From NCBI GenBank assembly GCA_000092065.1, contig CP000585.1: 64,000 bases of DNA; one strand, given 5' to 3'. A program made the position numbers and the translations under genes. The notes under the pieces are model-generated. The model ran no database searches. It was not told the DNA's origin and was given only the letters and a program-made list of their open reading frames with translations. Shown piece after piece: positions 3,379-56,539 of the stretch (position 1 is its first letter; each line of letters starts with the position of its first letter). The DNA is from Ostreococcus lucimarinus. Its lineage: Eukaryota.

Positions 3379-3457
3379 TGTAGTCGTCGAATCCGCGCGA
3401 ATGCGTCATTGCGCGACTCCCCTCCCGCGTTCGCCGCGGGCGTTGCGTATCCGTGCG

Positions 3458-4441
3458 ATGGGGAAGAACGACGACGAACGCGGCATCGAGCGCCGCCGAA
3501 TCTTGCTCGTATTCGACCTCAACGGCTTGTTCGTCGAGCGCTTCCGAAACGGAAAATTCACCAGACCTCACGCGGTCGACGCCATCGAAACGGAGCGCGC
3601 CGTTGAGATCGAAGACGCTGTGCCGCGCGCCTCTTCTCCGGTGTCTTCGCGTACGCGCGGTGCGGCGACGCGACTCGAGGTCGTGGAGCCGGACTTTCGG
3701 GTTGGCCGTCACAACCATTACGTTAGGCGCTACACTGAAGAATTTTTGCGCTGGGCTCATGGGCGCTTCGACGTCGCTGTGTGGTCTTCTGCGATGGAAG
3801 TGAACACGACGGCGATGGTGGAAAATATATGGCCGTCCGATTTACGGTCGAAGATCGCGTTCGTGCTCAATCAAGACCACTGCGCGGTGGACGGCGTGAT
3901 GAAAACCAAAGGCGGCTCGAAAGGAACAAAGCCAAAGTTTCTGAAACCGCTGTCGGTGGTGTGGGAAAAGTTTGCGGATAGGTTCGATGCTATGAACACG
4001 TTACTCATCGACGACGACGCGTACAAGGCCATTCGCAACCCTGCGAATACGGCAATCCATCCGAAACCATTTTCTGTGGCGACGCGTGATTCCGACGACG
4101 GACTCAGCGCGAATGGCGCGCTCCGCAAATACCTCGCGAGACTTCTCGCGAGCGACTCGGTGCCCGACTTCGTCAAGGCAAATCGCTTCATCGACGGACA
4201 ACATGACGAAAGGTCAAATGAAGGATTTGTCGAAGATGTAGCAAAGAGCATTGAAACGGTTAACGCAAAACTCGCCGCGTTGCGCGTTCAAGAGAAGGTA
4301 TCACGGCAAAAGACGAAACCCGAGATGAGGATTCCACTTCCGAAATCGCTCATCATGAGGAACGCGGCGAAGACTCGAACGATCGCGCCCGTCGAGCCCG
4401 TCGTAACGCCGACGAGCGAACGAACACGGAGCACTAGGTAG
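3458..4441 (+). CDS. FCP1-homology/NIF-type (CPDc, HAD-like) phosphatase-domain protein with non-canonical motif I (DLNGL); tandem paralog 1
   Basis: ORF 3401..4441; ATG 3458 (MGKNDDERG) is chosen because it clears the upstream gene. LLVFDLNGLFV sits where DLDETL is expected; conserved WSSA...NT, TLLIDDDAYKAIRNPANTAIHPKPF and DSDD...DVR-like blocks typical of CTD-phosphatase-like domains. Confidence 0.6.
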   Translation: MGKNDDERGIERRRILLVFDLNGLFVERFRNGKFTRPHAVDAIETERAVEIEDAVPRASSPVSSRTRGAATRLEVVEPDFRVGRHNHYVRRYTEEFLRWAHGRFDVAVWSSAMEVNTTAMVENIWPSDLRSKIAFVLNQDHCAVDGVMKTKGGSKGTKPKFLKPLSVVWEKFADRFDAMNTLLIDDDAYKAIRNPANTAIHPKPFSVATRDSDDGLSANGALRKYLARLLASDSVPDFVKANRFIDGQHDERSNEGFVEDVAKSIETVNAKLAALRVQEKVSRQKTKPEMRIPLPKSLIMRNAAKTRTIAPVEPVVTPTSERTRSTR

Positions 4442-4527: not shown

Positions 4528-5739
4528 ATGCCCAAGAAGAAACAGGAAATCATCACCACGCGCGCGTCAAATCGGCTGAAAGCACGCGCCGCGGCGGCGC
4601 AGGAAGCCGCGGACGAGGCGATGCGCGCCGGCAAGCGTCCGGCAGTTGCTGCACGAAAGGCTGCGGTAAAGCTCGCCAAAGTCGCCGCCGATGCCGCAAA
4701 GTCGGTGACTGCGAGGGACAAGCGAGGGAATAAGCGCCTGAACGTCGTCGAAGCAGACGCAGCGGCCGAAGATGGCGCGAAAGAGGCGCGGGCTCCGCCG
4801 CCGCCACCGAAGAAGAATGCGAAAAAAAGCTCGGCGAACGCGCTCGTGGCGGCGTCGGGGGCCATCGGGAACACGCGCGCGGTGAGTGCGGTGAAACACG
4901 ACAAGCTTCTCGTCCTCGACCTTAACGGGCTGTTCATCGATCGTCGAATCAAGAGACACGTGAGGGAGGGCGACGACGACGTGGCGTCCGACGAAGAACT
5001 ACGCACTGAGTTGAGGCTGGACGTGGACTCGATCGAGGCGCCGACAAACTCGAAGGAAGTGACGGAGGACGCCAAAGTTGGCAACTTTTACGTGTACGAA
5101 CGTCCACACATGCGCGAGTTTATTGAATGGGTGCACACGCGGTTTGAAGTGGGCGTGTGGTCGAGCGCCAACTTTCGAAACACGACGAATTTGGTAGACT
5201 ACGTGTGGGGCGAGCACAAAAACAAAATCGCATTCGTTTGGGGGCAAGAAAGGTGCTCTGATGTTGGCATCGCGCCCTCATCGACGTCGACGCGCCCAAT
5301 GTTTCTCAAAGAATTGAAACACGTCTGGAAACTTAAAAGGAACACGGGGCTATCTCACTTCAACAAAACGAATACGCTTTTGATTGACGACTCGCCTTAC
5401 AAAGCCATTCGAAACCCCGCGCACACCGCCATCCATCCGTGCGGATTCACCACGGACGATCGTGAGTCGGACGATTTGTTGAGTGAACATGGCGCGCTTC
5501 GCCAATATCTCGAGCGATTGTCAGACGCAAAATCTGTCCCTGACTTCGTGCAGACCAACCCGTGGAATGGTGGGAAGATCAGCGAGCAGCACCAAAGGCA
5601 AATTGCACACGCACACGAAGCTTGCGCAATCGCGACTCAAAAGGCAAAGGCAAAGCTATTTGCTTTCAGGGATCCTTTGGAAATCGATTTGGACGAGGAG
5701 CTCGCCGACCCTTTGGAAATCGATTTGGACAATCTCTAG
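4528..5739 (+). CDS. FCP1-homology/NIF-type phosphatase-domain protein, tandem paralog 2 (DLNGL motif; Lys/Ala-rich N-terminus; C-terminal 12-aa direct repeat)
   Basis: 403-aa ORF starting MPKKKQ; LLVLDLNGLFIDR, WSSANFRNTT, TLLIDDSPYKAIRNPAHTAIHPCGF and ESDDLLSEHGALRQYLERL are collinear with paralog 1; C-terminus DPLEIDLDEELADPLEIDLDNL. Confidence 0.65.
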   Translation: MPKKKQEIITTRASNRLKARAAAAQEAADEAMRAGKRPAVAARKAAVKLAKVAADAAKSVTARDKRGNKRLNVVEADAAAEDGAKEARAPPPPPKKNAKKSSANALVAASGAIGNTRAVSAVKHDKLLVLDLNGLFIDRRIKRHVREGDDDVASDEELRTELRLDVDSIEAPTNSKEVTEDAKVGNFYVYERPHMREFIEWVHTRFEVGVWSSANFRNTTNLVDYVWGEHKNKIAFVWGQERCSDVGIAPSSTSTRPMFLKELKHVWKLKRNTGLSHFNKTNTLLIDDSPYKAIRNPAHTAIHPCGFTTDDRESDDLLSEHGALRQYLERLSDAKSVPDFVQTNPWNGGKISEQHQRQIAHAHEACAIATQKAKAKLFAFRDPLEIDLDEELADPLEIDLDNL

Positions 5740-12952: not shown

Positions 12953-13820
12953 ATGTCCTGAATGTCCAGATGTTGTTTCATAACTTATTCTAGCGTCGTT
13001 AATCAATAATCAATGTTGCGTCGTAGACGTCGTGTGTATTTCTTTGAACGCGCGCGCGAACCACCGCTTCGCCGTCATGTATCCTCGTCCTCTTCGTACT
13101 CGAACACTCCCAAGGTGTCCATGGCATCTCTCATCGCTATTTTCGCTAAAGCCATCTGTATGCGCGACCCTGGATCGAGTCCGATCGCGCTCGTCATCGT
13201 TCTCACGCCTCGTCTCGCGACGTCCTCCGCCTCGCCTCGCCCGCGCGACGACGACCCGCCGCCGTAACCGCCTCGTCTGCCGCCACCGCCCGCGCCACCG
13301 CCGCCCGCGCCTCCTCGCGTTCCGCTCAAAAACTCTTCCAAAGCCGTCGACGCGCGTCCGTTTCCCGCGGACGTCGTCGACGCCGCGCTCCGCCCGCTCG
13401 CGACGACGCCGCGCGTCGCGCCTCGCGCGGGCGCCGTCGTCGCGCGCGTCGTCGCGCGCGTCGTCGCCGCCCCCCCCGCGCCGGCGCGCGACGCGGACGT
13501 CGCGACGACCATCGATCGTCGCGCCAGCGCGCGCGCGCGCGTCGCCCACGCCGACATCGGCCGCGGCACCGACGAGCCGTCGTCGTCGTCGTTCGAGTCG
13601 TTCGAGTCGTCGTGTCGCGCGGAAACGCGCGCGCGGCGCGCGCGTTTCCGTGACGGCCTCGGGGTTTAGGGTGTGTATCGACGGTACACCGATATCGATG
13701 TTTCACGCGCTTGAATGCGAGAGAAACGTCGCATTTAATTTAATTTCACGATCGATCGCGCGCCCCGCGACGCCCGCCCGCGACGCGCGCGCGCGTCCGT
13801 CTTTTCGTGACGCGCTCGAG

Positions 13821-14669
13821 ATGGTCAAGTTCCTCAAGGTACGTCGCGGACGATGCGGGACGATGCAAACGCATTCGTTACGCGCGCGCGTCGTTCGGGC
13901 GCACGCCGCGCGCGCGCGGACGGCGCCGACGCCGCGCGCGCGCGATCCGCGCCAGACCCTGAACGACGGGGACGCGCGCGAACGATCTTGGGACGACGGC
14001 CGCGCGGCGCGGCGCGCATCGATGCGGTCGACGCGAACGATGACTGACGCGGTTTTAATCGTATTCGCGCGCAGCCCGGTAAGGTTGTTGTCGTGCTTCA
14101 AGGCCGCTATGCGGGTAAGAAGGCTGTGATTGTGAAGAATGTGGACGATGGGTCTTCGGCTCATCCCTACGGGCACGCGCTCGTGTGCGGTCTGTCCACG
14201 ATCCCGCGCAAGGTACGTTTCGATCGCGAGCGTTATTTTCGATCGAACCCCGGCGCGACGAGCGCTCGAACGCGTTCGCGACGCGCTCAGGACGACGCGC
14301 GAGAACGTTGCATCCTCTGGTGAAAGCCCTAGACCTTTGGCGAGAGCCCGCGACGAGCTTGAAGACGAAAGACACTGACGAATTTTCGCATCTCCACGCG
14401 CGATTAAACACGCACAGGTGACGAAGAAGATGGATGAAAAGAAGCAAGCCAAGCGCTCGCGATGCAAGACGTTCATCAAGAACGTCAACTACTCTCACCT
14501 CATGCCGACGCGTTACACGCTCGACGTCGACCTCAAGAATGTCGTCACGTCCGACGCGTTGGACAACGCCACCAAGAAGGTTGCGGCGCAAAAGGAGGCG
14601 AAGAAGCTTCTCGAGGAGCGATTCAAGACTGGCAAGTCTCGTTGGTTCTTCACCCGTCTTGCCTTTTAA
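13821..14669 (+). CDS. RPL27: 60S ribosomal protein L27e (eL27), three exons: 13821..13838, 14075..14212, 14418..14669
   Basis: Exon 1 MVKFLK followed by GTACGT. Exon 2 [26 protein letters not shown]...PRK follows a CAG acceptor and is again followed by GTACGT. Exon 3 [39 protein letters not shown]...[14 protein letters not shown] follows CAG. 135 aa, collinear with human RPL27 (136 aa). Confidence 0.9.
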
Positions 14670-15061: not shown

Positions 15062-16519
15062 TTACGCGGTGGCGACGCGATGGAGCATCTTGAAGTTGTC
15101 GGCGATGATCTCCGTGCTCGGAGACGAGCGGTACGTGACACCGTTTGCCTTGGCCCACGCCTTCAGTAGCGGGCGAAGTTTATGGTAGTTGTAACGCGGC
15201 ATCGTGGGGAACAAGTGATGCTCCAACTGCGTATCCATTCCGCCCCAAATCCACGTTTCCAAGCCGCCGAAGACGCACTCGGCGTCGCGCGTCGAGCGGA
15301 ATTGCCCTTCCACGTACTCTGGATTCTCACCAAACTCCATGATTTCTTCGCTCTGGTGCGTCGCACTCACGAGAGCGCCGACGAGGAAACCACTGAGCGT
15401 GATAGAGCCGACAGCCACCTGCCACGGCATCATCGTCGCCAAGAAGAGATAGTTTGCCCCGATGAAGGCGAGCTCTTTGTAATCCCTCTTCTTCCACGCG
15501 GTTTGAACCGAGTGGAATCGCCAGAGCCAAAACATAATGGATAGCAGTGGGTAGCCGTAGATGTGCTGGAACTTGCGCATGGGGTGATCCGGTCGGCCGG
15601 ACTCTTGCGGCGAGCGCAAGAAGAAGAACGGCTCCATCATGACGTCGTTGTCGAGGTGCTCTTCATTCGTAAACGAGTGGTGCATCGAGTGCTTTTGCAT
15701 CCACCACTCCACACTGTGGCCATTCAAAATAGTCGGCATGTAGCGCATCAACGAGCACCACGGCCCACGTCCGTGGACGTAGTCGTGACCCAACCAACCC
15801 GCTTGTTCCATCCCGAGTCCGAGCAAAATAGTCGCCCAGACGGGGTGCGAATACGCGAGAGCGGTTCCGCTCACGTACAGAGCGACGACTTGGAAGAGCG
15901 CCCAAGCTTCTTTGAGCGGTTGGCGCTTGAAGAATCCGTCCTCCGCGAGCTTGTCGCGCAATTCACCGAACGCCATGCTCACCGCGTACGATTTCTCATC
16001 CGGAAGGCGAGACTTGTCCGCCGGCGGGTCGCAGCGCGGAAGCTTCTTCAACCTTTGCACGGCCAAATCCGAGCCGTTGGGGCCGTACGAATGCAGCGCG
16101 TAGAACACGTCCGTGGCGTCGCGTCCATCGAAAAAGTACAGCCACCGTTCGCCGCCCGGATGCGCCTTGGCCCACCCCCGACAGTCGTACCACTCGTCTC
16201 CGATTTTCACGCGAATCGGTTCATTCTTATCCCTCCCCTCCGGCGCGTCGTACGTCGGCACCGCGAGCGGATTCGCCACCGCCCCGATCGTCTGCGCGCT
16301 TCTCCGTCTCTTCCCATCGACCGCGCTCGCGCGCTCGCGCGTCACCGCCAGCGCGCCTCGCGCGCGCCCGTCCCGCGCGCGCCCCGTCGACGTCGGCGCC
16401 GCGCGCACCGCGACGTCGGCGCGCGCGAACACGCGCGCGCGACGCGCCGATCGCGCGCCCGCGGGCGCGGTCGCGCGCGCGTTCGTGAGCATGTGCGTCG
16501 CGTTCGCCGCGCCGACCAT
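15062..16519 (-). CDS. Front-end fatty-acid desaturase with N-terminal cytochrome b5 domain (delta6/delta5/delta4-type)
   Basis: HPGG heme motif; three His boxes HDYVHGR, HSMHH (Q-K-H-S-M-H-H), QLEHHLFP with Q in the third box typical of front-end desaturases; four TM helices; N-terminal Ala/Arg-rich presequence. Confidence 0.8.
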   Translation of the reverse strand: MVGAANATHMLTNARATAPAGARSARRARVFARADVAVRAAPTSTGRARDGRARGALAVTRERASAVDGKRRRSAQTIGAVANPLAVPTYDAPEGRDKNEPIRVKIGDEWYDCRGWAKAHPGGERWLYFFDGRDATDVFYALHSYGPNGSDLAVQRLKKLPRCDPPADKSRLPDEKSYAVSMAFGELRDKLAEDGFFKRQPLKEAWALFQVVALYVSGTALAYSHPVWATILLGLGMEQAGWLGHDYVHGRGPWCSLMRYMPTILNGHSVEWWMQKHSMHHSFTNEEHLDNDVMMEPFFFLRSPQESGRPDHPMRKFQHIYGYPLLSIMFWLWRFHSVQTAWKKRDYKELAFIGANYLFLATMMPWQVAVGSITLSGFLVGALVSATHQSEEIMEFGENPEYVEGQFRSTRDAECVFGGLETWIWGGMDTQLEHHLFPTMPRYNYHKLRPLLKAWAKANGVTYRSSPSTEIIADNFKMLHRVATA

Positions 16520-16693
16520 CGGAAGCGCGCGACGACGCGCAGAGTGCGGACGCGCGCGGTTCGCGCAACGTCACGACGGCGTCGGCGCGTGGGCGCGTCG
16601 GACAGTCGGACGCGTGCGGATGACATCGAACCGTCGAATCGCGCGCGATCGATCGCGCGTCGATCGAAAGCGTCGATCGATCGACGCCCGGTC

Positions 16694-16747
16694 GATCGCC
16701 GATCGCCGATCGCCGATCGCCGATCGCCGATCGCCAATCGCCAATCG
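16694..16747. repeat. Heptamer microsatellite (GATCGCC)n, ~7.7 copies, inside a CGATCG-rich tract (16620-16750) of the desaturase/GCH1 bidirectional promoter
   Basis: gatcgcc x6 then aatcgcc x2; preceded by several cgatcg/tcgatcga palindromes. Confidence 0.85.
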
Positions 16748-16817
16748 TCGCGTCTTCGTCGCCCCGCCCGCGCGCCGCAGAAGAAGACGCCGCCTCGACG
16801 CGCCGCGCGACGCGACG

Positions 16818-18353
16818 ATGGCGCGCGACGGTGACGTGGACGCGCGCGATGACGCCGTCACGGTCGAAGCGCGCGTCGTCGAACACGACGCCGTGGGTAA
16901 ACGCGCGCCGTCACCGCCGACGGCGACGCGCGGCGACGCGAACGCGGCGTCGGCGAGCTCGGACGACGAAGAGGCTGCGGCTGCGCAGCGGGCGGATAGG
17001 GCGCGCTTGGAGGGGTGCGTGCGAGAGATTTTGCGGGCTTTAGGAGAAGACGTCGAGCGAGAGGGATTATTAGACACCCCCTCGCGCGTGGCCAAGGCGT
17101 TGATGTTCGCGACGCGCGGTTACGACGCGTGCGCGACGGTGGCGCTAGGGACGGCGCTGTTTCACGAGACGGGCATGGCGAACGCGATGCGAACGACGAC
17201 GACGAATGAGATCGCGAATGGCACGCACGATATGGTGCTCGTGAGGGATATTCCAGTGTTCAGCACGTGCGCGGAGACATTCATGCCGTTCTACGGGGTG
17301 ATTCACGTCGGGTACGCCCCGAACGCGGGCGTCATCGTTGGCTTGAGCAAGCTCGCGCGCGTCGCGGAGGTGTACGCGAGACGATTACAAACCCCAGATG
17401 GGTTAGCACGAGCGGTGGCGCAGGCACTACACGATGTTGCATCACCACTGGGGGTTGGGGTTTCATTTACCGGCGTGCGGCTAGGCCCGTTCGGGCCTCG
17501 CGAGACGCAAGGGCGAGCGAGCACGGGGTGCTTCGCGACGTCCAGCTCGGTGTGGTGGGAAGAGTTCGGGGCGTTAGTTCAGCTCGGCGGTGCACCGTCG
17601 GAACTATCACGAGGTATTTGGGGCGATGATGCGCGTTACTGCGGGGCGTGTGATGACGACAAGGATGGCGTGGCGAGTACGAAGGGGCGAGGAGGAGCCG
17701 AGACGCTCGTAGACGAAGCGGCGAGAAGAGCCGTCGAGGGGGTGAGCGAGTCTGTCTACGCGGGAGTGAAGCAACTATTAAATGCGTTGAATCTAGAAGA
17801 CCGAGTGAGCGAGGCGACGGACGGGAAAATCACATTAGAAGACACCGCGAGACGGTTTTCGACTCTTTTGTCGGCGATGCGTTCGGGCGCAGACGTACCT
17901 TTTAGCGTCATCGAAGAGTCAGCAGCTCGCGACGACGCGACGACGAACGAGGACGTCATCGATGGTGTCTGCGTCGTGCGCGATTTGCACATGTCCACAG
18001 TGTGCGAACATCATCTGTTGCCGTTTCACGGGACGGTGAGTGTGGCGTACGCGTTGGGACCAGACTCTTCGCGCGCACTGAGCCGGGATACGCTACAAGC
18101 GCTCGTGACTCGACATTCACGAAGGCTGCAAGTGCAAGAGCGACTCACGCGCGATGTCGCAGAAGAAGTTAGCAAACTTACGGGAGGATTAGGGGTCATG
18201 GTGGCCGCGCGCGCGGCGCATCTTTGCATGGTGAGTCGAGGTGTGGAAAAGCCGGGGAGTTCGACGTGCACAGTGACGAAACTCGGTCGTTTTGCCTCCG
18301 AGCCCGCGCTGCGCTCGCGTGTGTGGGAGCGCCTCGCTTCGGCTCGCCGTTGA
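16818..18353 (+). CDS. GTP cyclohydrolase I, plant-type with two tandem GCH-I domains
   Basis: Domain 1: LLDTPSRVAKALMFATRGY ... VRDIPVFSTCAETFMPFYGVIHVGYAP. Domain 2: VRDLHMSTVCEHHLLPFHGTVSVAYAL...RRLQVQERLT. The ORF extends to 16113, but the ATG at 16818 follows the CGATCG promoter tract. Confidence 0.85.
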   Translation: MARDGDVDARDDAVTVEARVVEHDAVGKRAPSPPTATRGDANAASASSDDEEAAAAQRADRARLEGCVREILRALGEDVEREGLLDTPSRVAKALMFATRGYDACATVALGTALFHETGMANAMRTTTTNEIANGTHDMVLVRDIPVFSTCAETFMPFYGVIHVGYAPNAGVIVGLSKLARVAEVYARRLQTPDGLARAVAQALHDVASPLGVGVSFTGVRLGPFGPRETQGRASTGCFATSSSVWWEEFGALVQLGGAPSELSRGIWGDDARYCGACDDDKDGVASTKGRGGAETLVDEAARRAVEGVSESVYAGVKQLLNALNLEDRVSEATDGKITLEDTARRFSTLLSAMRSGADVPFSVIEESAARDDATTNEDVIDGVCVVRDLHMSTVCEHHLLPFHGTVSVAYALGPDSSRALSRDTLQALVTRHSRRLQVQERLTRDVAEEVSKLTGGLGVMVAARAAHLCMVSRGVEKPGSSTCTVTKLGRFASEPALRSRVWERLASARR

Positions 18354-27338: not shown

Positions 27339-27378
27339 CCGTCGCGAACGAACGAACAGACGAACGAACGAACGAACG
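27339..27378. repeat. (GAAC)n/(ACGA)n microsatellite immediately upstream of the RAD17 start codon
   Basis: gaacgaacagacgaacgaacgaacgaacg. Confidence 0.8.
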
Positions 27379-29241
27379 ATGGAACGCATCGCGAGCCTGG
27401 ACGCGACGAACGCGACGAACGCGACGACGACGGAGGCGACTGGCGATGGTGAACGAACGATGGTGATGCTGGTCGATCGATACGCGCCCGAGGACGCGAA
27501 CGCGCTGACGACGCCGACGAAAAAATTGGAGGCGGTGCGAGCGTGGCTCGAACGCGGCGGCGCGCTGTGCGCGAGCGGACCGCCGGGATGCGGGAAGGCG
27601 AGCGCGATCAAGTGCGTGGCGAAAGAGTTTGGATACGAAGTGAGCGAATGGAAAGCGCCGACGCCGACGCTGTGGAGAGAACACGCGCACGCGAGAGGGA
27701 ATGAAAATTATGGGATAGAGTACGCGAGCAAGGTGGACGAGTTCGCGGCGTACGTCGCGCGGGCGACCAAGTACGAACCGTTGTCGTTTTTAAAGCCCAC
27801 GACGAGGGGCGGAAACGGCGCGCGCGGCGCGCGAAATGGAAGTGCGAACGGGACGTCGACGGCGAAAGGAAAGTCGCGAGGCGTGGTGTTGATGGTGCGA
27901 GACATTCCGAGCAGCGACGAGAGCGGACGCGCGCGCGTGCTCGAGGCGATTCGAACGTTAACCACGGCGCGGAACGGACCGCCGTGTGCGGTCGTGCTCA
28001 CGGAAGAAGACGATGGGGGTGGTGGCGGTGGATCGAGCAGTCGAGGAGAGATACTCGCCCGGGACGTGAGAGCGGTGATGGAGCAAGCGGGGGCGACGTG
28101 TATTAATTTCAACGCCACGACGGCGGCGGCGATGACAAAGACGTTGCTGCGCGTGCGCGAGGCTGAGGGATTTGTCATCCCGGATTCGGAAATCGACGCC
28201 ATCGTGCAAGCATCACACGGTGATTTGCGCAGCGCCCTGGGAGCGCTCGAGTTCTGGTGCATGGGAAAGACAAAGCCAGATGCGGCGAAAAAGCCGGCGA
28301 AAAAGGCGCCCAAGCGCAAGCGCGGCGAACCCAAGGAGGCGCCTTCGGAAGCGGCCGTCGCGCGCGCCAAGATGAGCTCCCGCGATCAAGGCCTGGGATT
28401 ATTTCACGCCCTCGGCAAGTTTCTTTACAACAAACGCGAAACCACAGAGGTTATGGAAATTAAAGGCTTTGAAACCATGGACGAATCGTTGCGGCGACCG
28501 CCGGCTCGGTACGATCCCGAGGAAGTCCTCTCGCGCTCTGGCATAGGCGCCGAAACCGCGGTGGGTTTTCTGTTCGAAAACTTTCCAGATTTCATAGATT
28601 CTAGATGCATAGATTGGGTGGCGGCCGGAACGAGATACTTATCGGACGCCGCGATATTGGCTCGAGGAGGCGTTTCGACGTACGGCTTTCGTCGCGGACG
28701 CGAGGACGTGGGCGACGAAGGCGACGGCGCGATCGACCCCAACGTCCTCGGCGAGTACGCCGCCGGTTCGGTGGCGACGCGTGGAGTTTTATTCTCTTCC
28801 AAACGATCCTCCGCGGGCTTTCTCCCCATGCGTGGACCGAGCGCGATGAAAAATGATCGCGCCGCGGCTTCGAACCGCGAGGAAGTCCGCGCCGTCGTCG
28901 CCGCCGCGCACGACGGCGACTTCTCCGTCGGCGGCACGACGACCGCCGCCGCGATCGAGACCCTTCCCGCGTTGCGTTTGATCTCCAGCGCTTCCTCTGC
29001 AGGCGCGGCTTTGGTTCCTTTCCTTCCCGCTCGTTGGCGTTCCGCTCGGGAGGACGACGCCGCGTTTCGCCGTCGCGTCGCCGCCCTCCCTCTTCCCGCC
29101 GCCGCGCCTCTTCCCGCCGCGCTCGCCTCGGGCGTCGCCTTGGCGATCGATCGCGGCGCCAAGGGTGCGCACGCGCCTCCGTTAACCCTGGACGACATCG
29201 ACGATTTAGAGGACGACATCGAGTCCGATTCCGACCCCTGA
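27379..29241 (+). CDS. RAD17: Checkpoint clamp-loader subunit RAD17/Rad24 (AAA+)
   Basis: Walker A CASGPPGCGKAS, sensor SHGDLRSALGALEF, RAD17 signature GLFHALGKFLYNKRE; 620 aa. Confidence 0.8.
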   Translation: MERIASLDATNATNATTTEATGDGERTMVMLVDRYAPEDANALTTPTKKLEAVRAWLERGGALCASGPPGCGKASAIKCVAKEFGYEVSEWKAPTPTLWREHAHARGNENYGIEYASKVDEFAAYVARATKYEPLSFLKPTTRGGNGARGARNGSANGTSTAKGKSRGVVLMVRDIPSSDESGRARVLEAIRTLTTARNGPPCAVVLTEEDDGGGGGGSSSRGEILARDVRAVMEQAGATCINFNATTAAAMTKTLLRVREAEGFVIPDSEIDAIVQASHGDLRSALGALEFWCMGKTKPDAAKKPAKKAPKRKRGEPKEAPSEAAVARAKMSSRDQGLGLFHALGKFLYNKRETTEVMEIKGFETMDESLRRPPARYDPEEVLSRSGIGAETAVGFLFENFPDFIDSRCIDWVAAGTRYLSDAAILARGGVSTYGFRRGREDVGDEGDGAIDPNVLGEYAAGSVATRGVLFSSKRSSAGFLPMRGPSAMKNDRAAASNREEVRAVVAAAHDGDFSVGGTTTAAAIETLPALRLISSASSAGAALVPFLPARWRSAREDDAAFRRRVAALPLPAAAPLPAALASGVALAIDRGAKGAHAPPLTLDDIDDLEDDIESDSDP

Positions 29242-29391
29242 GCGTCCCGCGAATGCAACCAAAAGATGAAACCAAAGCCGCGCCGCCGCCGACGGTGACG
29301 CGACATCGCGTCGCGTCGCGTCGCGTCTCGTCTCGCCGTCGTCGCGCCCGACGACCGCGCGCGGCTTCGAGGACGCGCGCGCGGATCCGCG

Positions 29392-30902: not shown

Positions 30903-32909
30903 TCACGCCGATTCCGCGTACACGACGTACGGCATCGTCCCGAGCGTCACCGGCGACGTCGTCGAATCTCCGACGGCGCCGCGAACGGTGCCCAAACCGA
31001 GATTGTACGTCCCCGCTTTTAACGCGGGAGCGACGCACACGATGCCCGCATCGGCGTTTGCATCCGTGGTCACGAGCGGGGTCCATCCATTGACGACGAT
31101 GGACCCGAAACGACACGACGTCATCGACGTCGCCGCGACGCTATTCCCCAAAGTGAAAACCACACGAGTGCCGCCGTACGTCGGTCCAAGATGCGGCGCT
31201 ATGGAGTGCTGGTACACGAGCGTATTTCCCATGAAGGAATACTTCGGCCCGCTCGCTACGGCGGCTAGACTACTCCCCGCGACGATCACTTGCACGGACG
31301 ACGACACCGTTCCCACGTACGGGGTCTCGCACGCGATGAGCGCGGACGAGACGAACGAGCCGAGCGAAGAGCCGCTCTTGTCCACGCCGAACGAACATCG
31401 CGGCACCGCGCCGTCGCCGGCGCGGACTGTTTCGTGGAAGTTATTCCCCGTGACCCACACCACGGCACCGCCTTCGGATGGACCGCGCGCAGGCGAGACC
31501 GAGGACGTCGTCGGCGTCGCGGTAATCTTCAAAACGACGTCGCTGTCGTGCGGTCGCGACGTCGGCAAATCCCGACCGTGGTAACTCATCATCACCGTCA
31601 CGAATCCCGTGGCGAGCTGATTGTCGTGCAAACACGCGCTGCTCGTACTCGTCGCGGTCTCACCCACACCTTGAGTGACGCAGAGCAAGGATAACGAAAA
31701 CGTCGGATACGGGTCCGCACTCCACGAATACGTCGTCGGAAGCGTACCGCTTTCGCTCGCGGATACCACGCCGTAAAATTCATCGACGACGTCCAAAGTC
31801 GCCCCGGCGCTCTTCTTACCCGAGTTCATCGACGGTACCGCGGCCACCCAAACATCTTTCGACGTCGCGGGCGCCATCGCGGGCGCGATGACTGTGATCG
31901 TGTACGCGTTACTCGCCGAAGCCGCGACGCTAATCGCGCCAAAGCGCACGTACGGCGCTCCGTCGTCCGTAAACATGGCGCCTAAAATCCCCGCCACGGT
32001 GACGTCGACCCCGATCCCCCCAGTCACGTGCGTCGCGTTCTTATCCTTGCTCGTGATCGCGAGCGCGTCCAAATTAATTCGTTCTACGAGCGCCACTCGA
32101 CTCTCTCCGAAGCTGTACATGGACGCCTCCTCCGCGCTCGTCGACGGCGCCGCGAATCGCGGCACTTCGCACATCACGAGCGCGCTCGACACGTACACGC
32201 CCATGCCGGCGTAAGAAACCTCGAACCCTCCGCTCGTCGCCCCTCGCCACTCGCACTCGCGCGCGCGCCCGACGATGTCCGGACTCCCGTCTTTCGGCAG
32301 CGCGTTTCGTCCCGTCAGCCTCGACACGTCGCCCTCCGTCGCCACGTGCGGCGACGACCTCGTCAGCACGCCGTTCATCTCGCGAACAAAGTTCACCACG
32401 CTCGACATTCCGAGCTCGTGAAACAGCACCGCGTCGACGCCACCGTTCGAGCTCAACCCCAACGCGACGAATCCCTCGCGTCCGCTCGGCGTATCGCACC
32501 GCACTCCCGTCGTTCCCGCGATGACGCTCGCGTCGTACGACTCCCCCGGCGACCCCCCGAACACGCATCGCAGCTGTCCCGGCACGCTCGCCGCCGCCGA
32601 GCTCCCGGGCGGAAAGTTCAACCCGAACACATCCACCCCTCCCGTCGTTCCGAGCGACGTCGTCGTCGACGGCACGCCCACCGCCAGCAAACCGACGTCC
32701 GACGCGTGCGTGTATCCTCGCGCGCCGCGTCCTCGCGCGCGCCACCACGCCGCGCACGCCGCGACCGCGCGCGCGTCGAAGCGCCGTCGCGCGCGCGTCC
32801 GCGTCGTCGTCCTCGCCTTCGCTCGCCTCGACCGTCGCGCGTCGTCGACGCGATCGCGCGTCGCGCGCGCGCGTTCGCGCGTCGCCCGCGACCGTTCGTC
32901 CCGCGGCAT
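30903..32909 (-). CDS. Extracellular-type protein with multiple IPT/TIG (Ig-like, plexin/transcription factor) domains
   Basis: Reiterated P..GP..GGT.V.h.G..F units (e.g. ISPARGPSEGGAVVWVTGNNF, IAPHLGPTYGGTRVVFTLGN); the ORF extends upstream to 33986 through low-complexity Arg-rich sequence. ATG 32909 is a guess, and no clean signal peptide is seen. Confidence 0.5.
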   Translation of the reverse strand: MPRDERSRATRERARATRDRVDDARRSRRAKARTTTRTRARRRFDARAVAACAAWWRARGRGARGYTHASDVGLLAVGVPSTTTSLGTTGGVDVFGLNFPPGSSAAASVPGQLRCVFGGSPGESYDASVIAGTTGVRCDTPSGREGFVALGLSSNGGVDAVLFHELGMSSVVNFVREMNGVLTRSSPHVATEGDVSRLTGRNALPKDGSPDIVGRARECEWRGATSGGFEVSYAGMGVYVSSALVMCEVPRFAAPSTSAEEASMYSFGESRVALVERINLDALAITSKDKNATHVTGGIGVDVTVAGILGAMFTDDGAPYVRFGAISVAASASNAYTITVIAPAMAPATSKDVWVAAVPSMNSGKKSAGATLDVVDEFYGVVSASESGTLPTTYSWSADPYPTFSLSLLCVTQGVGETATSTSSACLHDNQLATGFVTVMMSYHGRDLPTSRPHDSDVVLKITATPTTSSVSPARGPSEGGAVVWVTGNNFHETVRAGDGAVPRCSFGVDKSGSSLGSFVSSALIACETPYVGTVSSSVQVIVAGSSLAAVASGPKYSFMGNTLVYQHSIAPHLGPTYGGTRVVFTLGNSVAATSMTSCRFGSIVVNGWTPLVTTDANADAGIVCVAPALKAGTYNLGLGTVRGAVGDSTTSPVTLGTMPYVVYAESA

Positions 32910-32939
32910 CGAATCGAATCGAATCGCGCGCGCGTCGTC

Positions 32940-33390
32940 GTCGTCGCGTCGCGCGTCGTCACCGCGCGCCGTCTCGCGCGTCCGACGCGCGTCGCCGCAT
33001 CGCGCGCGCGCCTCGCGATCGCCGCGGTCGCCGGTCGCGCGCGCGTCCGTGTGCGGGCGCGGCGCCGCGACGTCGCGCGCGAACCGATCGATCGATCGAT
33101 CGATCGATCTCGATCGCGATCGACGCGTCGTCGATCGCGGGTTCGATTCGATCGACGACGCGTCGATCGCGATGGGTTCGATTCGAGCGATCGACGCGCG
33201 CGCGCGATGCCTCGCGATCGCGCGCGATCGCGATCGCGATCGACAGACGACGACGCGACGGACGCGTCGGCGCGAACGACGCGCGACTCGCGCGCGAGGC
33301 ATCGCGCGGGCGATCGCGGCGATCGACGCGGCGCGCGACGCGGCGCGCGACGCGCGGGGACACCGTGAATCGATAATCATCCACGTGTTC
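32940..33390. repeat. Low-complexity palindrome-rich tract (CGATCG, TCGATCGA, GCGATCGC; (GATC)n run at 33084-33125) in the IPT-TIG/CRAL-TRIO divergent spacer
   Basis: Dense nested cgatcg/gatcgatcgatcg motifs, gaatcgaatcgaatcg at 32911-32935. Confidence 0.8.
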
Positions 33391-33395
33391 GCATC

Positions 33396-33595
33396 TTGCG
33401 GATGAGCGCGTCCGTGGCGTCGCCGGAGACGGCGAAGAAACAGCGAGAGGAAGACGCGCAGGCGTTGAAGCGCGCGATGGACGCGGTGGCGAACCCGACG
33501 CGAGTGGAGGCGACGACGGAGACGACGGAGACGACGGAGACGACGGAGACGACGACGAAGGACGCGAGCGAAGAGGCGAAAGAGGACGCGGTGGA

Positions 33596-33633
<38 letters not shown>

Positions 33634-34229
33634 ATGAAACGGAACGACCGCAACAGACGGCGACGGACGAGGACTACGCGCGATTGGATGCGTATTTGAG
33701 TACCGGGTTCGGTTTGGTGCACGCCGACGGGAAAGACGGCGAGGGGCGAACGGTGGTGACGGTGAACGCGACGCGGATTCCGGGCTGGGCCGGCAGCGCG
33801 GATCGCGATAACTCGATGAATCTCATCATCAATACGCTCGAACGCGTGGCGGCGGCTGGGGAGTACGTCGTCGTGGTGTATTTCGGCGACGACGACCGAT
33901 CGAAGGGCGTCGTGCCGACACACTCGCTCAACTGGCTCGGCGACCTCCACGACAAGTTGGCGTACGCGGTGCGGAAAAACGTGCAAAGAATTGTCTTCGT
34001 GAACGCGACGTGGATCATGAGCAGCATCATCTCGTTGACGATGACGTTCGCCACGTCAAAGGCGAGCAAGAAATTCGCGTGGACCAAATCCCTGGACGAC
34101 ATGGACAAGGACACGGGATACAACGTCCACCAAGCGATGTGCGGCGAAAAGTTTCTTGCCTCGGTCGGTAGAAAAGTCGTGTACGCCGAATCCGAAGCCG
34201 CCGCGCCCGCGCCCGCCGCATCGTCGTAA
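33396..34229 (+). CDS. Divergent CRAL-TRIO (CRAL_TRIO_2/BCH-like) domain protein with N-terminal poly-Thr/TTE repeats
   Basis: GRTVVTVNATRIP...EYVVVVYFGDDD...WLGDLHDKL...NVQRIVFVNATWIMSSIISL...KFAWTKSLDDMDK matches the CRAL_TRIO_2 pattern; (TTE)n and T13 run encoded by (GAGACGACG)n/(ACG)n. Confidence 0.5.
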
Positions 34230-38168: not shown

Positions 38169-38332
38169 CGCGTCGCGTTCGGGCGCGCTCGACGTTCGTT
38201 ATCCCTCGTCGCGCGAGCGAGTGACGTCGAGTCGGTCGTCGGTCGGCGGCTCGTCTCGACGCGCGATCGCCATCGCGCGACGCGGACGCGCGATACGCGC
38301 ACCGACGCGCGCCGACGTCGAGCTCGACGAGA

Positions 38333-38368
<36 letters not shown>

Positions 38369-47209: not shown

Positions 47210-47404
47210 TCCTAGAACACCGTCCGTTAGTTTATCACGCACCACTTCGTTCATCGCGCGCGTCGCTTTCGCGCCCGCTCGCGGCCGTCTCCTTCTTCTC
47301 TCCTCTCCTCTCTTCGCGCGTCCGCGGCGGCTCGCGGTCCCGGTCCTTCTCAAGATGTCCCGCCCGATCGACGCCCACTTCGATCGGCATCGCGCGACGC
47401 GCGC

Positions 47405-48541: not shown

Positions 48542-48681
48542 ATCAATTACAACGTTGCGATGGTATATTTCACCAATAACCTATCGATTCTTGGATGATG
48601 TTAAACGTTCTTATTATTTGTTCTTCACCGTCTCGCGCGCTTGAAACGTTGTGTCGCGATTTCACGTCGGGAGTCGCGCTT

Positions 48682-49356: not shown

Positions 49357-49548
49357 CGTCGCCGCGCTCGAGCGTCTCGCGCCTCGCGCCTCGCGTCGGG
49401 GCGTCGGGGCGTCTCGGAATCCGGTCGCGCGACCGGACGTCGACCGCGACCGCCCGGACGAGTCGCGAACGGTCGACGCGACCCGCAGACGGCGACGGCG
49501 ACCCGCGGACGGCGACGGGCGCGATGGACGATAGAAAAAGTGCGCGCG

Positions 49549-52058: not shown

Positions 52059-52333
52059 CCTTCGGTGCCTCGTTTGAATTCAATCGAATGCAATCCACCA
52101 CCGTTTCCTCGTTTCCGCCTCGTTTCCGCGTCGCGTCGCGTCGCGTCGCGCGCGCGCGTCGACGGCGTCGCGTCGCGTCGCGCGCGCGTCTCGTCGTCCG
52201 TCCTCGCGCGCCGTCGCGCGTCGCGCTCTCCCGTCGCGCGCGCCGCCGTCTGTCGCGTCCGAGAGCGTCTTCTCGGACGCGCCGATCGATCGATCGGATC
52301 GATCGATCGATCGAATGATCGGCACTCGGCGAC

Positions 52334-55203: not shown

Positions 55204-55468
55204 CGCGCGCCGTCGCGTCGCGCGCGCCGCTCGCGCGTCGCGACGCCGCGAGAACTACGCGCGATGCGCCTCGCGCGCGCGCGTGACGGCGTCGGCGCGC
55301 GATGGCGTCGCGTCGCGTCGTCGCATCGTCGTCGCGAAGTGCGGTGACGCGCGCGTCACATCGAAGCGACGCGCGCGTTCGCCGCGCGACGCTTCGACGG
55401 ACGCGACGGACGCGCGCGCGCGCGTCTTCAGCGCGCGCGTCGTCGTCGCGTGCGCGATCGCGATCGCG

Positions 55469-56539
55469 ATGGCGTCCGGACGCGCCGGGACGCCGGCGGC
55501 GACGCTCGGGACGCTGCGCGCGCACGACGCGAAGCGCGCGCTCGCGGTGGATCGGTTGATCCTGGGGGCGTCGCCGCTGGCGGGAATATACCGCGGCGTC
55601 GACGCGAGCGAGGCCGCGGCGACGGTGCGCGCGGCGCTCGACGTCGGGTTCACGCGGTTCGACACGGCGCCGCACTACGGGTTGGGGCTGAGCGAGACGC
55701 GCCTGGGCGAGGCGCTGCGAACGCACGCGAAGAAGGCGGTGAAGGTGTACACCAAGGTGGGAAGGGTGATGAAACCGATGGATGAAGTGACGGAAAGCGA
55801 ACGCGAGTCGGTGGTCGAGTGGGGGAACGTGCCGGGAAACGACGGGTGCATATTTCCAGACGCCCCGCGAGACGTGTTGCCCGTGCTCGATTATTCCGCG
55901 AATGGGTTCGTGCGATCGCACGCCGATAGTTTAAACAGGCTTGGGATTGATAGAATAGAGGGATTGAGGATTCACGACGCCGAGACGCCCGAAAGGTTCG
56001 AGGCGGCGACGACCGGGGGCGGCGTGCGCGCGTTGACGGCGCTTCGCGACGCGGGAACCATTTCAGAGGTATCGCTCGGGATGAACGACGCCTCGTACGT
56101 GTTGCGAATGATTCGCGAGAATCCCCCAGGAACGTTCGACTCGGTCATGATGGCCGGTTCGTGGAACTTGCTCGATCAAGACGGTCTCGAAGTCTTGCTC
56201 GAGTGCCAAGCGCGAAACATCAAGGTGCACAACGCCGGCGTCTTCGCCAGCGGCGTCCTCGTCGGCGGTTCGCACTACAAGTACGGCCCCGCTCCCGACG
56301 AGATCAAGCGGCGCACCGAAAAGTGGAACGTCTTGGCGCGCGCGTACGACATCCCTCTCCCCGCCATCGCCCTCGCCTTCGCCCTCACTCCCGAAGTCGT
56401 CGACTCGTGCGCCGTCGGCGTCAAGTCCCCCGACGAGGTCGCCCAATCCGTCGCCTGGCTCGCCGACGCCGCCCGCGTCCCGCGCCAGCTTTGGCTCGAC
56501 GCGTTTTCTCAAGGTTTACTCGCGTGGATCCCGTCCTAG
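55469..56539 (+). CDS. Aldo/keto reductase (L-galactose dehydrogenase / D-threo-aldose dehydrogenase-like)
   Basis: AKR fold motifs LILGASPLAGIY, FDTAPHYG, catalytic Tyr/Lys positions, C-terminal IPLPAIALAF; ORF extends to 55172 but ATG 55469 follows the CGATCG promoter tract. Confidence 0.7.
   Translation: MASGRAGTPAATLGTLRAHDAKRALAVDRLILGASPLAGIYRGVDASEAAATVRAALDVGFTRFDTAPHYGLGLSETRLGEALRTHAKKAVKVYTKVGRVMKPMDEVTESERESVVEWGNVPGNDGCIFPDAPRDVLPVLDYSANGFVRSHADSLNRLGIDRIEGLRIHDAETPERFEAATTGGGVRALTALRDAGTISEVSLGMNDASYVLRMIRENPPGTFDSVMMAGSWNLLDQDGLEVLLECQARNIKVHNAGVFASGVLVGGSHYKYGPAPDEIKRRTEKWNVLARAYDIPLPAIALAFALTPEVVDSCAVGVKSPDEVAQSVAWLADAARVPRQLWLDAFSQGLLAWIPS

Follow-up and report, generated by a model that had tools for sequence, protein, structure and literature searches.

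CGATCG-rich tracts at the 5' ends of Ostreococcus lucimarinus genes: probable slippage-generated tandem repeats rather than a demonstrated shared promoter signal

Introduction

Unstable tandem repeats in promoters (promoter microsatellites) have been described in both yeast and bacteria. In cyanobacteria, the highly iterated palindrome HIP1 (GCGATCGC) is dispersed chromosome-wide, genes included. The bidirectional and housekeeping promoters of animals contain palindromic CpG elements, such as TCTCGCGAGA, and in Drosophila DRE/BEAF-32 CGATA clusters are found between head-to-head genes. The animal and Drosophila elements are discrete, conserved and factor-bound, and are enriched as single copies.

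In the green lineage, the motif YVGATCBR, located downstream of the TSS, is bound by GATA factors in vascular plants, where each copy increases transcription by about 50% (Voichek et al. 2024, PMC11525189). The effect has been shown in vascular plants only, being weak or absent in bryophytes (PMC11525189). In the chlorophyte Scenedesmus the DAP-seq motifs of two GATA factors contain GATC (PMC12638912), and a C2C2-GATA family has been reported from O. lucimarinus (PMC4827209). Moreover, adenine methylation (6mA) occurs at ApT, with SATS as the most methylated context; in Ostreococcus and Micromonas it is highest immediately downstream of the TSS, where it takes the place of 5mC (PMC12695648). 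In O. tauri, the 6mA peak lies near the ATG and 5mCG goes down to about 6% (bioRxiv 10.64898/2026.07.10.737489). The literature on Ostreococcus yielded nothing specific on CGATCG or GATC as a promoter element, the matches to GATC being to a sequencing company.

A preliminary description of 64,000 nucleotides at the end of an O. lucimarinus CCE9901 chromosome (the window) had pointed to CGATCG tracts recurring between head-to-head genes, and had proposed this palindrome, usable in either orientation, as a shared core-promoter or transcription-factor site of divergent gene pairs. The analysis reported here leads to a different view: the tracts are probably slippage-generated short tandem repeats in CpG-saturated 5' DNA, rather than a demonstrated shared promoter signal.

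Materials and methods

The host is a eukaryote, the telomeres in the window being of the TTTAGGG type, and the identities of the genes flanking the quoted tracts are backed by Pfam. Base composition was controlled by dinucleotide-preserving shuffles, either of the whole window (100 or 200) or within each spacer; as the whole-window excess of CGATCG was only marginal, testing was shifted to class-wise and local-shuffle comparisons. Repeats were called with TRF, together with a search for direct and inverted repeat pairs in the window. The independent sample consisted of 32 Mamiellales-like metagenome contigs with (CGAT)n tracts, whose gene maps were obtained with a codon-usage caller made for this analysis, introns being ignored. 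Locus L007, an error-prone long-read assembly with fragmented genes, was left out of the spacer statistics.

CGATCG counts and local composition

Over the whole window CGATCG is weakly high, with 127 occurrences versus 106.6 +/- 9.4, a count reached by 4 of 100 dinucleotide shuffles. The distribution by class is uneven: 43 in divergent spacers (2891 bp), 4 in tandem-oriented spacers (3038 bp), 2 in convergent spacers (1644 bp) and 78 in coding DNA (55240 bp). Head-to-head spacers thus reach 15/kb, about 10 times the density of coding DNA, whose 1.4/kb is near expectation, and the observation that CGATCG-rich tracts concentrate in head-to-head 5' spacers, as compared with coding or 3' DNA, is borne out. 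Within-spacer shuffles of the divergent class gave 30.1 +/- 4.0 against the 43 observed (P=0.001), and the whole of this excess is confined to three spacers: desaturase/GCH1, TIG/CRAL-TRIO and RING-BRCT/unknown. In the remaining eight, 8 sites compare with 8.2 expected, and the tandem spacers have 4 versus 6.7. Composition correction, put forward as a check in the preliminary description, leaves an excess in the three tract spacers and none in the other eight divergent ones.

The three tracts are real. The densest 100 bp contain 11 sites, with no more than 4 in 200 whole-window shuffles, and local shuffles gave clustering P<=0.0025 in each of the three tract spacers; the 52283 tract holds 6 sites versus 3.2 expected locally (clustering P<0.0005). 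The single copies and the two-site PolA/AKR run are indistinguishable from chance, the DNA around them having 23-33 CpG per 100 bp. The PolA/AKR run exists, its actual extent being 55453-55471, and its two sites (55455-55466) compare with 2.09 expected, and the copies upstream of RPL27 and DnaJ are present but at the chance level for RPL27 (2 versus 1.09, P=0.30) and at the chance level to borderline for DnaJ (2 versus 0.48, P=0.065). Across 113 independent spacers, CGATCG presence was 13 versus 13.6 expected for divergent and 19 versus 19.2 for tandem spacers (67 5' spacers). A discrete palindromic site serving as shared core-promoter or transcription-factor element of bidirectional promoters is not supported by these counts, the frequency of CGATCG outside the three arrays being set by local dinucleotides.

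Two results count against the tracts being products of repeat turnover. The non-seed divergent spacers contain 44 CGATCG versus 30.6 by local shuffles, a modest excess (P=0.015). Furthermore, the top hexamer family of divergent spacers is GATCGA/CGATCG/ATCGAT, which at 10.6 times its coding level ranks above pure CpG words (6.3 times for CGCGCG).

Repeat structure and natural variation

Every tract is a tandem array with a period of 4, 6, 7, 15 or 32-35 according to TRF and the repeat-pair search (Table 1), the TRF copy numbers being 6.2 and 7.8 for period 4, 5.5 for period 6 and 7.9 for period 7. The tracts sit 0-249 bp upstream of the flanking ATGs, a range in which they may belong to 5' UTRs or lie further upstream, and all those quoted in the preliminary description were recovered in place or within a few bases of it.

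Table 1. Repeat tracts and isolated CGATCG sites in the window, with their position relative to start codons
Feature	Coordinates	Strand	Structure	Position relative to ATG
Isolated double site CGATCGATCG upstream of RPL27	13749..13758	.	CGATCG at 13749 and 13753	64-73 bp upstream of RPL27 ATG (13822)
Proximal desaturase/GCH1 tract	16638..16692	.	imperfect 15-bp repeat ATCGCGCGTCGATCG, about 4 copies (TRF period 15)	
(GATCGCC)n microsatellite	16693..16747	.	TRF period 7, 7.9 copies, 97% matches	70 bp upstream of GCH1 ATG (16818); 174-228 bp from desaturase ATG (16519, minus strand)
Compound micro/minisatellite, TIG/CRAL-TRIO spacer	33016..33325	.	contains all 18 CGATCG sites	
Sub-array (CGAT)6.2	33085..33109	.	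part of 33016..33325	
Perfect inverted repeat	33113..33173	.	25 nt, 100% complementary; arms 33113-33137 and 33149-33173, 11-nt loop	
Sub-array of 32-35-bp units	33116..33209	.	part of 33016..33325	
Sub-array (GCGATC)n	33212..33242	.	part of 33016..33325	
Two isolated CGATCG upstream of DnaJ	47365..47386	.	at 47365 and 47381, tandem-oriented spacer	upstream of DnaJ ATG (47423)
(CGAT)n-type array CGATCGATCGATCG G ATCGATCGATCGATCG AATGATCG	52283..52321	.	TRF period 4, 7.8 copies; 8 GATC	13 bp upstream of ATG at 52335; 224 bp from RING-BRCT ATG (52058, minus strand)
(GCGATC)3 run, PolA/AKR spacer	55453..55471	.		AKR start codon (55469) inside last unit

The desaturase/GCH1 spacer does contain the GATCGCC microsatellite and the several CGATCG noticed at the outset, with 11 sites within 16646-16733. 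The microsatellite is made up of 6 perfect GATCGCC and 2 degenerate AATCGCC-like copies. The proximal tract, with five CGATCG sites and three TCGATCGA among them, is identical across 7 O. lucimarinus haplotypes and partly kept in the sister lineage L013. Metagenome haplotypes encoding identical desaturase differ in the length of the GATCGCC array by 7 and 28 bp (1 and 4 units), and the wild-population range is 3 to about 8 copies. A coding repeat was considered, since an in-frame ATG at 16620 would run through the array; these length differences are not multiples of 3 and break the frame, so the array is non-coding. At the position of (GATCGCC)n, L013 carries (GATC)n/(AGTCGATC)n instead, with 15 GATC. 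This GATC-dense tract is similar in size and position despite the changed unit, which counts against repeat turnover as the explanation, and selection for GATC density could be the source of its retention. In the congener L008 the desaturase/GCH1 pair is kept head-to-head and the spacer has 0 CGATCG.

The TIG/CRAL-TRIO spacer (32910-33401) holds the tract that had been described there, with 18 CGATCG sites. Besides the full-length allele, wild contigs show two shorter ones, an intermediate (L146) and one that lacks 122 bp, the deletion being bounded by the 14-bp direct repeat CGATCGCGATCGAC; the shorter alleles go with an identical or 97%-identical protein. In O. tauri, where the gene pair is kept, the orthologous spacer has 2 CGATCG versus 18 in O. 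lucimarinus, and no tract was found in the 20.8-kb syntenic region. With tract length varying within the species, and with the counts in L008 and O. tauri, a shared element kept at orthologous divergent promoters finds no support.

The RING-BRCT/unknown spacer contains 6 CGATCG sites at 52283-52313, in a tract whose earlier quotation was, trivially, one 4-base unit short. The metagenome contigs with the exact RING-BRCT protein stop 98 bp upstream of its ATG, before this tract, and a search with the exact AKR protein for population variants of the 55453 tract gave no record.

Repeats, gene orientation and gene 5' ends

Tandem repeats in general follow gene orientation. In the window, TRF arrays cover 43% of divergent-spacer bases versus 8% of tandem spacers, the GATCG type accounting for 5 of 21 arrays. 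Arrays of any unit make up 34% of divergent-spacer sequence in O. tauri and 15% of it in the metagenome loci, and across the three data sets their coverage is 5-8% in tandem-oriented spacers and 3-5% in coding DNA. The head-to-head bias thus belongs to tandem repeats of any unit. The commonest tetranucleotide repeat of the window is (ATCG)n; repeats of the non-palindromic (ACCG)n/(GGTC)n type are frequent there as well, and in independent divergent spacers the enrichment of this word family equals that of the palindromic family. Palindromy is therefore not the common factor.

As regards the metagenome (CGAT)n tracts, 50 of the 66 adjoining gene ends are 5' (P=3e-5), and by spacer 13 are divergent, 11 tandem and 2 convergent. 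Counted per gene 5' end, tracts are similarly frequent in divergent and one-directional settings (0.20 versus 0.12, P=0.2), which speaks against a bidirectional element specific to head-to-head spacers. Counted per spacer, divergent ones carry tracts more often than tandem ones (10/42 versus 2/60, P=0.003), a result that counts against repeat turnover.

Some other origins were also considered. A mobile element or dispersed repeat family was rejected, as blastn of four spacers against the window returned only low-complexity CpG matches of 72-85%. No structured RNA matched Rfam at the gathering threshold in the whole window. Avoidance of upstream ATGs on both strands, which would force ApT into GATC, was discarded: tract-free divergent spacers have 8 GATG, 8 CATC and 10 GATC, and their GATC count equals the product of its flank frequencies.

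Origin of the tracts and alternative explanations

The tracts consist of head-to-tail units, their copy number is polymorphic within the species, and units as well as presence turn over between relatives, with loss in congeners; these are the features of microsatellites. The most probable explanation is that they belong to (ATCG)n-family microsatellites, with GATCGCC and GCGATC as derivatives, plus small minisatellites built from them, all in the CpG-saturated non-coding DNA at O. lucimarinus gene 5' ends. Replication slippage, together with repeat-mediated deletion or duplication, would create them and drive their turnover, which we infer to be nearly neutral, and CGATCG would be the mere spelling of the repeat units. 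In DNA made of nearly all CG dinucleotides with an occasional A or T, ApT is almost always flanked as CG-AT-CG, which gives CGATCG. The pile-up in head-to-head spacers would be expected because these are wholly 5' DNA, with two gene starts and no 3' end, and because they are the most CpG-rich and most repeat-tolerant sequence class of the compact genome.

A functional alternative, which we consider unlikely, is that the arrays are homotypic GATC clusters for GATA-type zinc-finger factors near the TSS, working as dose-dependent enhancers, with slippage tuning the expression of one or both genes. The dose effect and GATA binding of YVGATCBR in vascular plants (PMC11525189), the GATC-containing motifs of Scenedesmus (PMC12638912) and the C2C2-GATA family of O. 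lucimarinus (PMC4827209) are consistent with it, as is the fact that (CGAT)n consists of overlapping TCGATCGA, which fits YVGATCBR. This plant-derived consensus fits 16 of the 38 GATC in the three main tracts (3/11, 6/19 and 7/8), and in 159 genes of independent loci its density between -100 and -400 from the ATG is about 7 times that of coding DNA; the GATC-dense tract retained at the same place in L013 points the same way. However, single sites occur at the chance level under local composition in all three comparisons given above, neither (GATCGCC)n nor (GCGATC)n, the largest arrays, matches YVGATCBR at its outer positions, and the plant effect itself is weak or absent in bryophytes (PMC11525189). 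The existence of a wild 122-bp deletion allele, the missing arrays in orthologous spacers of congeners and the equal enrichment of the (GGTC)n family also argue against GATA-dependent enhancers.

It is quite improbable that the arrays are dense substrates of the AMT1 adenine methyltransferase, whose preferred target is ApT within S-A-T-S, helping to set the 6mA-rich, 5mC-poor chromatin of gene starts that are otherwise ApT-poor. Such a role would agree with the published 6mA at SATS near Ostreococcus gene starts (PMC12695648; bioRxiv 10.64898/2026.07.10.737489), with the 8-23 ApT per 100 bp of the tracts versus 2.2 in tract-free divergent spacers, and with the share of ApT that lies in GATC (47% in divergent spacers versus 11% in coding DNA). 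Nevertheless, most 5' spacers lack a tract and have an ApT density below that of coding DNA, which excludes a general need for ApT arrays, and in most of the species surveyed 6mA showed no evident relation to the density of ApT (PMC12695648). Moreover, the reported 6mA is in linker DNA downstream of the TSS, whereas the tracts are placed here relative to the ATG only.

Base composition alone, by which CGATCG would be frequent wherever CpG-rich DNA holds ApT, is very improbable as a general account. Wherever tested, isolated sites are as frequent as the dinucleotides predict, and for single copies this reading stands; for the three tracts it is ruled out by clustering, since no window shuffle produces 6-11 sites in 60-100 bp and local shuffles rarely do so, and tandem periodicity is explicit.

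Finally, it is very improbable that self-complementary arrays act through cruciforms or hairpins, whether as boundaries that exclude nucleosomes, by insulating divergent genes from each other or as replication/recombination hot spots: (CGAT)n and (GCGATC)n are self-complementary, and the inverted repeat of the TIG/CRAL-TRIO tract gives 33080-33200 a fold at z=-4.3, with 0 of 200 shuffles folding as well, but it is the only significant self-structure, 4 of 5 tract segments folding no better than shuffles (z -0.3 to -1.7), the common 122-bp deletion allele lacks it, and neither (GATCGCC)n nor the equally enriched (GGTC)n is self-complementary.

Implications for picoalgal genomes

These results call for caution in motif discovery. 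Mamiellales 5' spacers hold about 25-30 CpG per 100 bp, and CpG-flanked palindromes like CGATCG are to be expected by composition alone; as composition yields CGATCG and slippage would multiply its copies, motif hunts in this DNA need controls for both local composition and tandem repeats. Head-to-head spacers are the repeat-richest sequence class of these compact genomes, the (ATCG)n and (GGTC)n families being dominant, and the array length variation in ocean metagenomes provides ready-made strain markers. Furthermore, the arrays supply a series of natural alleles in which an effect of GATC copy number on transcription, or on 6mA at gene starts, could be looked for; such an effect is directly testable in O. 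tauri, which can be transformed and for which nanopore methylation maps are available.

Comparison with known systems

Like the plant GATC motif (PMC11525189), the O. lucimarinus arrays have a GATC core, are found in multiple copies near the gene start and belong to the green lineage, but the plant motifs are dispersed single sites up to 500 bp downstream of the TSS (PMC11525189), unlike the tandem arrays. By analogy, the gene-start GATC arrays of Mamiellales might be the algal counterpart of the vascular-plant motif, read by GATA factors, perhaps marked with 6mA by AMT1 at S-A-T-S, and dependent on copy number; we regard this as rather improbable. If it were true, slippage of the (CGAT)n type would provide wild picoalgae with finely graded, inherited differences in the expression of one or both head-to-head genes, and the GATC rheostat would have originated in an ancestor that green algae share with land plants.

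As in HIP1, the octamer GCGATCGC is present in the window, the TIG/CRAL-TRIO tract having 4 copies of it and the PolA/AKR run 2. Unlike HIP1, it is limited to those two arrays of a eukaryotic nuclear genome and is lacking from the desaturase/GCH1 and 52283 tracts; the likeness is one of spelling only. The tracts share with the animal and Drosophila elements short, CpG-containing, orientation-free words clustered between divergent genes, and differ from them in that single copies do not exceed chance, the clusters are arrays probably made by slippage, and there is no conservation between congeners.

Although their units are CpG-based (ATCG, GATCGCC, GCGATC) rather than AT-rich, and they are known here from sequence alone, the O. 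lucimarinus tracts resemble promoter microsatellites: they are short arrays confined to non-coding 5' DNA and enriched there over coding and 3' DNA, their copy number is polymorphic in nature, and unit and length shift rapidly between close lineages.

Genes and base composition

The window begins at an O. lucimarinus chromosome end, as indicated by 28.6 perfect copies of CCCTAAA, the plant-type telomere repeat, at positions 1-200. It has 60% G+C and densely packed genes. Five of its proteins are 100% matches to O. lucimarinus CCE9901 entries, and these sequences are plentiful in marine metagenomes. Earlier gene calls were borne out by Pfam scans, and the map based on these checked calls and on codon-position statistics comprises 41 genes, whose starts were recovered identically by an independent codon-log-odds caller. 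It contains 11 divergent (head-to-head), 17 tandem (same-direction) and 12 convergent (tail-to-tail) spacers. The plus-strand ORF 48595-50055 is probably two genes: its Got1 domain is confined to 49549-50055, and the minus strand carries a strongly coding 224-aa ORF, lacking a Pfam match, with which metagenome gene calls are concordant. Splitting it creates a 12th divergent spacer, with zero CGATCG. Two tandem paralogue pairs are present, and the RPL27 intron directly follows codon 6 (AAG/gtacgt), the first-exon sequence being kept in two congeners (L007 and L009).

Spacers adjoining gene starts (5' spacers) show a G+C content of 0.65-0.78, 23-33 CpG per 100 bp and a CpG observed/expected ratio of about 2, and 3' spacers one of 0.35-0.53 with 6-13 CpG per 100 bp. 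Almost all ApT in the CpG-saturated 5' spacers is CG-flanked. The CGCGCG-rich zone reaches about 150 bp into coding sequence.

Features of the window, with CGATCG counts against local shuffles where available
Feature	Position	Strand	Remarks
NIF-type phosphatase pair	3401-4441, 4528-5739		tandem paralogues
GGGTTTAGGGT	13664-13675		10-nt telomere-repeat (telo-box-like) word, ~150 bp upstream of RPL27 start
RPL27 start and exon/intron junction	13822-13845		intron directly after codon 6
Desaturase	15062-16519	minus	Pfam
Desaturase/GCH1 spacer	16520-16817		CGATCG 11 vs 4.7 expected
Its tract, part 1	16638-16692		imperfect 15-bp repeat
Its tract, part 2	16693-16747		(GATCGCC)n, 7.9 copies
GTP cyclohydrolase I (GCH1)	16818-18353	plus	Pfam
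(CGAA)8.8	27345-27379		ends at Rad17 ATG
(TCGCG)8	29306-29346		further upstream of Kelch start
IPT/TIG protein	30903-32909	minus	Pfam
TIG/CRAL-TRIO spacer	32910-33401		CGATCG 18 vs 14.0 expected
Its tract	33016-33325		compound: (CGAT)6.2, 32-35-bp units, (GCGATC)5.5, inverted repeat
Inverted repeat in this tract	33113-33137 / 33149-33173		perfect, 25 nt, 11-nt loop
CRAL-TRIO	33402-34229	plus	Pfam
(TCGCG)6.6	38075-38107		further upstream of AMP-binding start
(CGA)14.7	38325-38366		just before AMP-binding ATG
GT90 glycosyltransferase pair	43796-45418, 45530-47209		tandem paralogues
DnaJ	47423-48541	plus	Pfam
224-aa ORF	48682-49356	minus	
12th divergent spacer	49357-49548		if ORF 48595-50055 is split
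RING-BRCT	50199-52058	minus	Pfam
Third tract spacer	52059-52334		CGATCG 6 vs 3.2 expected
Its tract	52283-52321		(CGAT)n, two interruptions
PolA	52957-55203	minus	Pfam
Aldo-keto reductase (AKR)	55469-56539	plus	Pfam

CGATCG counts and composition

The preliminary description suggested that the CGATCG tracts of head-to-head spacers might be a shared palindromic promoter or transcription-factor site. All the tracts that it quoted are present, and CGATCG is in marginal excess in the whole window (127 against a dinucleotide expectation of 106.6 +/- 9.4). The divergent spacers contain 43 sites in 2891 bp (15 per kb), the tandem ones 4 in 3038 bp (1.3), the convergent ones 2 in 1644 bp (1.2) and coding DNA 78 in 55240 bp (1.4). 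In an unbiased hexamer scan of the divergent spacers, GATCGA, CGATCG and ATCGAT rank top, at 10.6 times their coding level, with CGCGCG at 6.3 times. The densest cluster reaches 11 sites per 100 bp, against 4 at most in 200 window shuffles.

When each spacer was shuffled separately, with dinucleotides preserved, the divergent spacers still exceeded expectation (43 vs 30.1 +/- 4.0, P=0.001). This composition-controlled comparison upholds an excess in three of them only, from which it stems entirely (Table) and in each of which the sites are also clustered (P<=0.0025 against their own local shuffles); there is none in the other eight (8 vs 8.2) or in the tandem spacers (4 vs 6.7). Since counts outside the three match local expectation, composition accounts for the isolated sites close to RPL27 and DnaJ as well as for the run of two where AKR begins, all of them also cited for the promoter idea.

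Tandem repeats at gene 5' ends

According to TRF and repeat searches, all three dense tracts are tandem arrays. The inverted-repeat segment is the sole one that out-folds shuffled DNA (z=-4.3), the others giving z from -0.3 to -1.7. No dispersed element common to the tract spacers was found on comparing them within the window, nor any Rfam family match anywhere in it.

Whatever their unit, TRF arrays take up 43% of divergent, 8% of tandem, 1% of convergent and 5% of coding bases. This ranking is repeated in independent Mamiellales-like loci (15%, 7%, 4% and 3%, same class order), and the syntenic O. tauri region follows it too (34%, 5% and 8%). Of 21 good arrays located in divergent spacers of the window, no more than 5 are of GATCG type; other units include CGAA, TCGCG, CGA, GTCGTTCGA and GCCGACGG. 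Thus, the CGAA, CGA and TCGCG microsatellites indicate that 5' repeat richness is not GATCG-specific. Among tetranucleotide repeats of the window, (ATCG)n is the most frequent; in the metagenome loci, chosen for carrying (CGAT)n, (ACCG)n ranks second.

Independent metagenome loci

Scanning metagenome contigs for (CGAT)4.5 gave 120 loci, from which 32 non-redundant Mamiellales-like contigs (3 kb or longer, G+C 0.53-0.68, CpG observed/expected 1.4 or higher), totalling 309 kb and none overlapping the window, were kept. Among all Mamiellales-like hits, contigs under 3 kb included, the seed tracts (the runs by which contigs were picked up) are spread over 13 divergent, 11 tandem and 2 convergent spacers, while one falls within coding sequence and 17 are at contig edges; the adjoining gene ends are 50 5' vs 16 3' (P=3e-5).

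Once seed-tract spacers were excluded, the spacers of the 32 contigs served as an unbiased sample. CGATCG is in excess in its 26 divergent spacers (44 vs 30.6 +/- 5.2, P=0.015; 13 with a site, 13.6 expected; clusters in 5), and not in the 41 tandem (39 vs 38.7, P=0.5; 19 with a site, 19.2 expected; clusters in 2) or 46 convergent ones (3 vs 5.5, P=0.93; 3 with a site, 4.6 expected; clusters in 0). Pooled, tracts occur in 10/42 divergent vs 2/60 tandem spacers (P=0.003). Per gene 5' end, rates are 0.20 vs 0.12 (P=0.2), so that the head-to-head bias largely reflects doubled 5' ends. Tracts lie 0-249 bp from flanking ATGs; relative to the ATG, GATC-type words are raised at about -100 to -400 and lowest in the final 50 bp ahead of it, the positional profile showing no sharp preferred distance from the ATG.

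In the independent divergent spacers, the (GGTC)n words CCGACC, CGACCG and GACCGA match the (ATCG)n family in enrichment, both being about 5x over coding DNA (CGCGCG, 3.4x). As (GGTC)n is equally enriched and (ACCG)n is second-commonest in the metagenome loci, palindromy is not the shared trait of the enriched words.

Variation within and between lineages

Seven haplotypes encoding an identical desaturase differ by 7 and 28 bp in GATCGCC copy number, the spacer outside this array being almost invariant. A translated array, with an in-frame upstream ATG at 16620, is ruled out by these length alleles. At TIG/CRAL-TRIO, 3 of 10 wild contigs whose CRAL-TRIO protein is identical lack 122 bp, the deletion being flanked by the direct repeat CGATCGCGATCGAC. 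About eight CGATCG sites are lost with it, and so is the inverted repeat, which is therefore missing from a common wild allele. An allele of intermediate length is seen in another haplotype, whose protein is 97% identical.

In a sister lineage (L013; GCH1 97% identical) a tract of similar length lies 69 bp from the GCH1 ATG, vs 70 bp in O. lucimarinus, and is built of (GATC)n and (AGTCGATC)n, with 15 GATC. Congener L008 (about 71% identity) retains the desaturase/GCH1 pair, with zero CGATCG in that spacer and in all five divergent spacers. In congener L009 the place of the GATCG tract upstream of GCH1 is taken by a (GGTCGGTCGGTCACGTG)n array, and the CGATCG copies scattered over two of its other divergent spacers are not significantly in excess (8 vs 4.9 and 7 vs 4.3 expected). 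This array, in the RPL27/GCH1 spacer (L009 9790-9890), contains the G-box palindrome CACGTG. The orthologous O. tauri TIG/CRAL-TRIO spacer has 2 CGATCG vs 18 in O. lucimarinus, and no cluster exists in the 20.8-kb syntenic region.

The Ostreococcus-like lineages (L007-L010 vs the window) show rearranged gene order in the neighbourhood of GCH1. In L008, as in O. lucimarinus, the head-to-head partner of GCH1 is the desaturase, and in L007, L009 and L010 it is RPL27; with such switching, divergent pairs here are not stable units.

Origin and possible roles of the tracts

The recurring feature is hypervariable tandem repeats with CpG-based units, located where genes begin, polymorphic within the species and turning over between lineages. 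The proposal of a shared bidirectional-promoter element stands at most in part: the tracts do sit at 5' ends and in divergent spacers, but palindromy is not their common factor and the bias is largely one of doubled 5' ends. In the best-supported account, the tracts would be short tandem repeats generated by slippage and reshaped by repeat-mediated deletion and duplication. On this view they occupy the only kind of DNA in the compact genome that combines sufficient length, absence of coding and a composition favouring CpG-based repeats. Their structure, polymorphism and turnover are observed; slippage as the mechanism and near-neutrality are inferences.

It is unlikely, though conceivable, that the GATC arrays act as GATA-factor sites. 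In vascular plants, YVGATCBR downstream of the TSS boosts transcription according to copy number via GATA factors, the effect being weak or absent in bryophytes (PMC11525189). GATC is also recognised by chlorophyte GATA factors (PMC12638912), a GATA family has been reported for O. lucimarinus (PMC4827209) and (CGAT)n consists of overlapping TCGATCGA, consistent with the consensus, although its outer positions are not matched by (GATCGCC)n or (GCGATC)n. A role as 6mA elements is more doubtful still: in Ostreococcus and Micromonas, AMT1-type 6mA at ApT (S-A-T-S preferred) replaces 5mC just after the TSS (PMC12695648; bioRxiv 10.64898/2026.07.10.737489), and nothing else in the 5' spacers, which are otherwise poor in ApT, comes near the tracts in GATC density, but ApT is scarcer in 5' spacers lacking a tract than in coding DNA, so that neither idea is a general gene-start rule.

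The remaining testable lead is that GATC arrays of a transformable picoalga may serve as GATA or 6mA elements whose effect depends on copy number. The tracts are a fresh example, of modest interest, of an already known kind of sequence.
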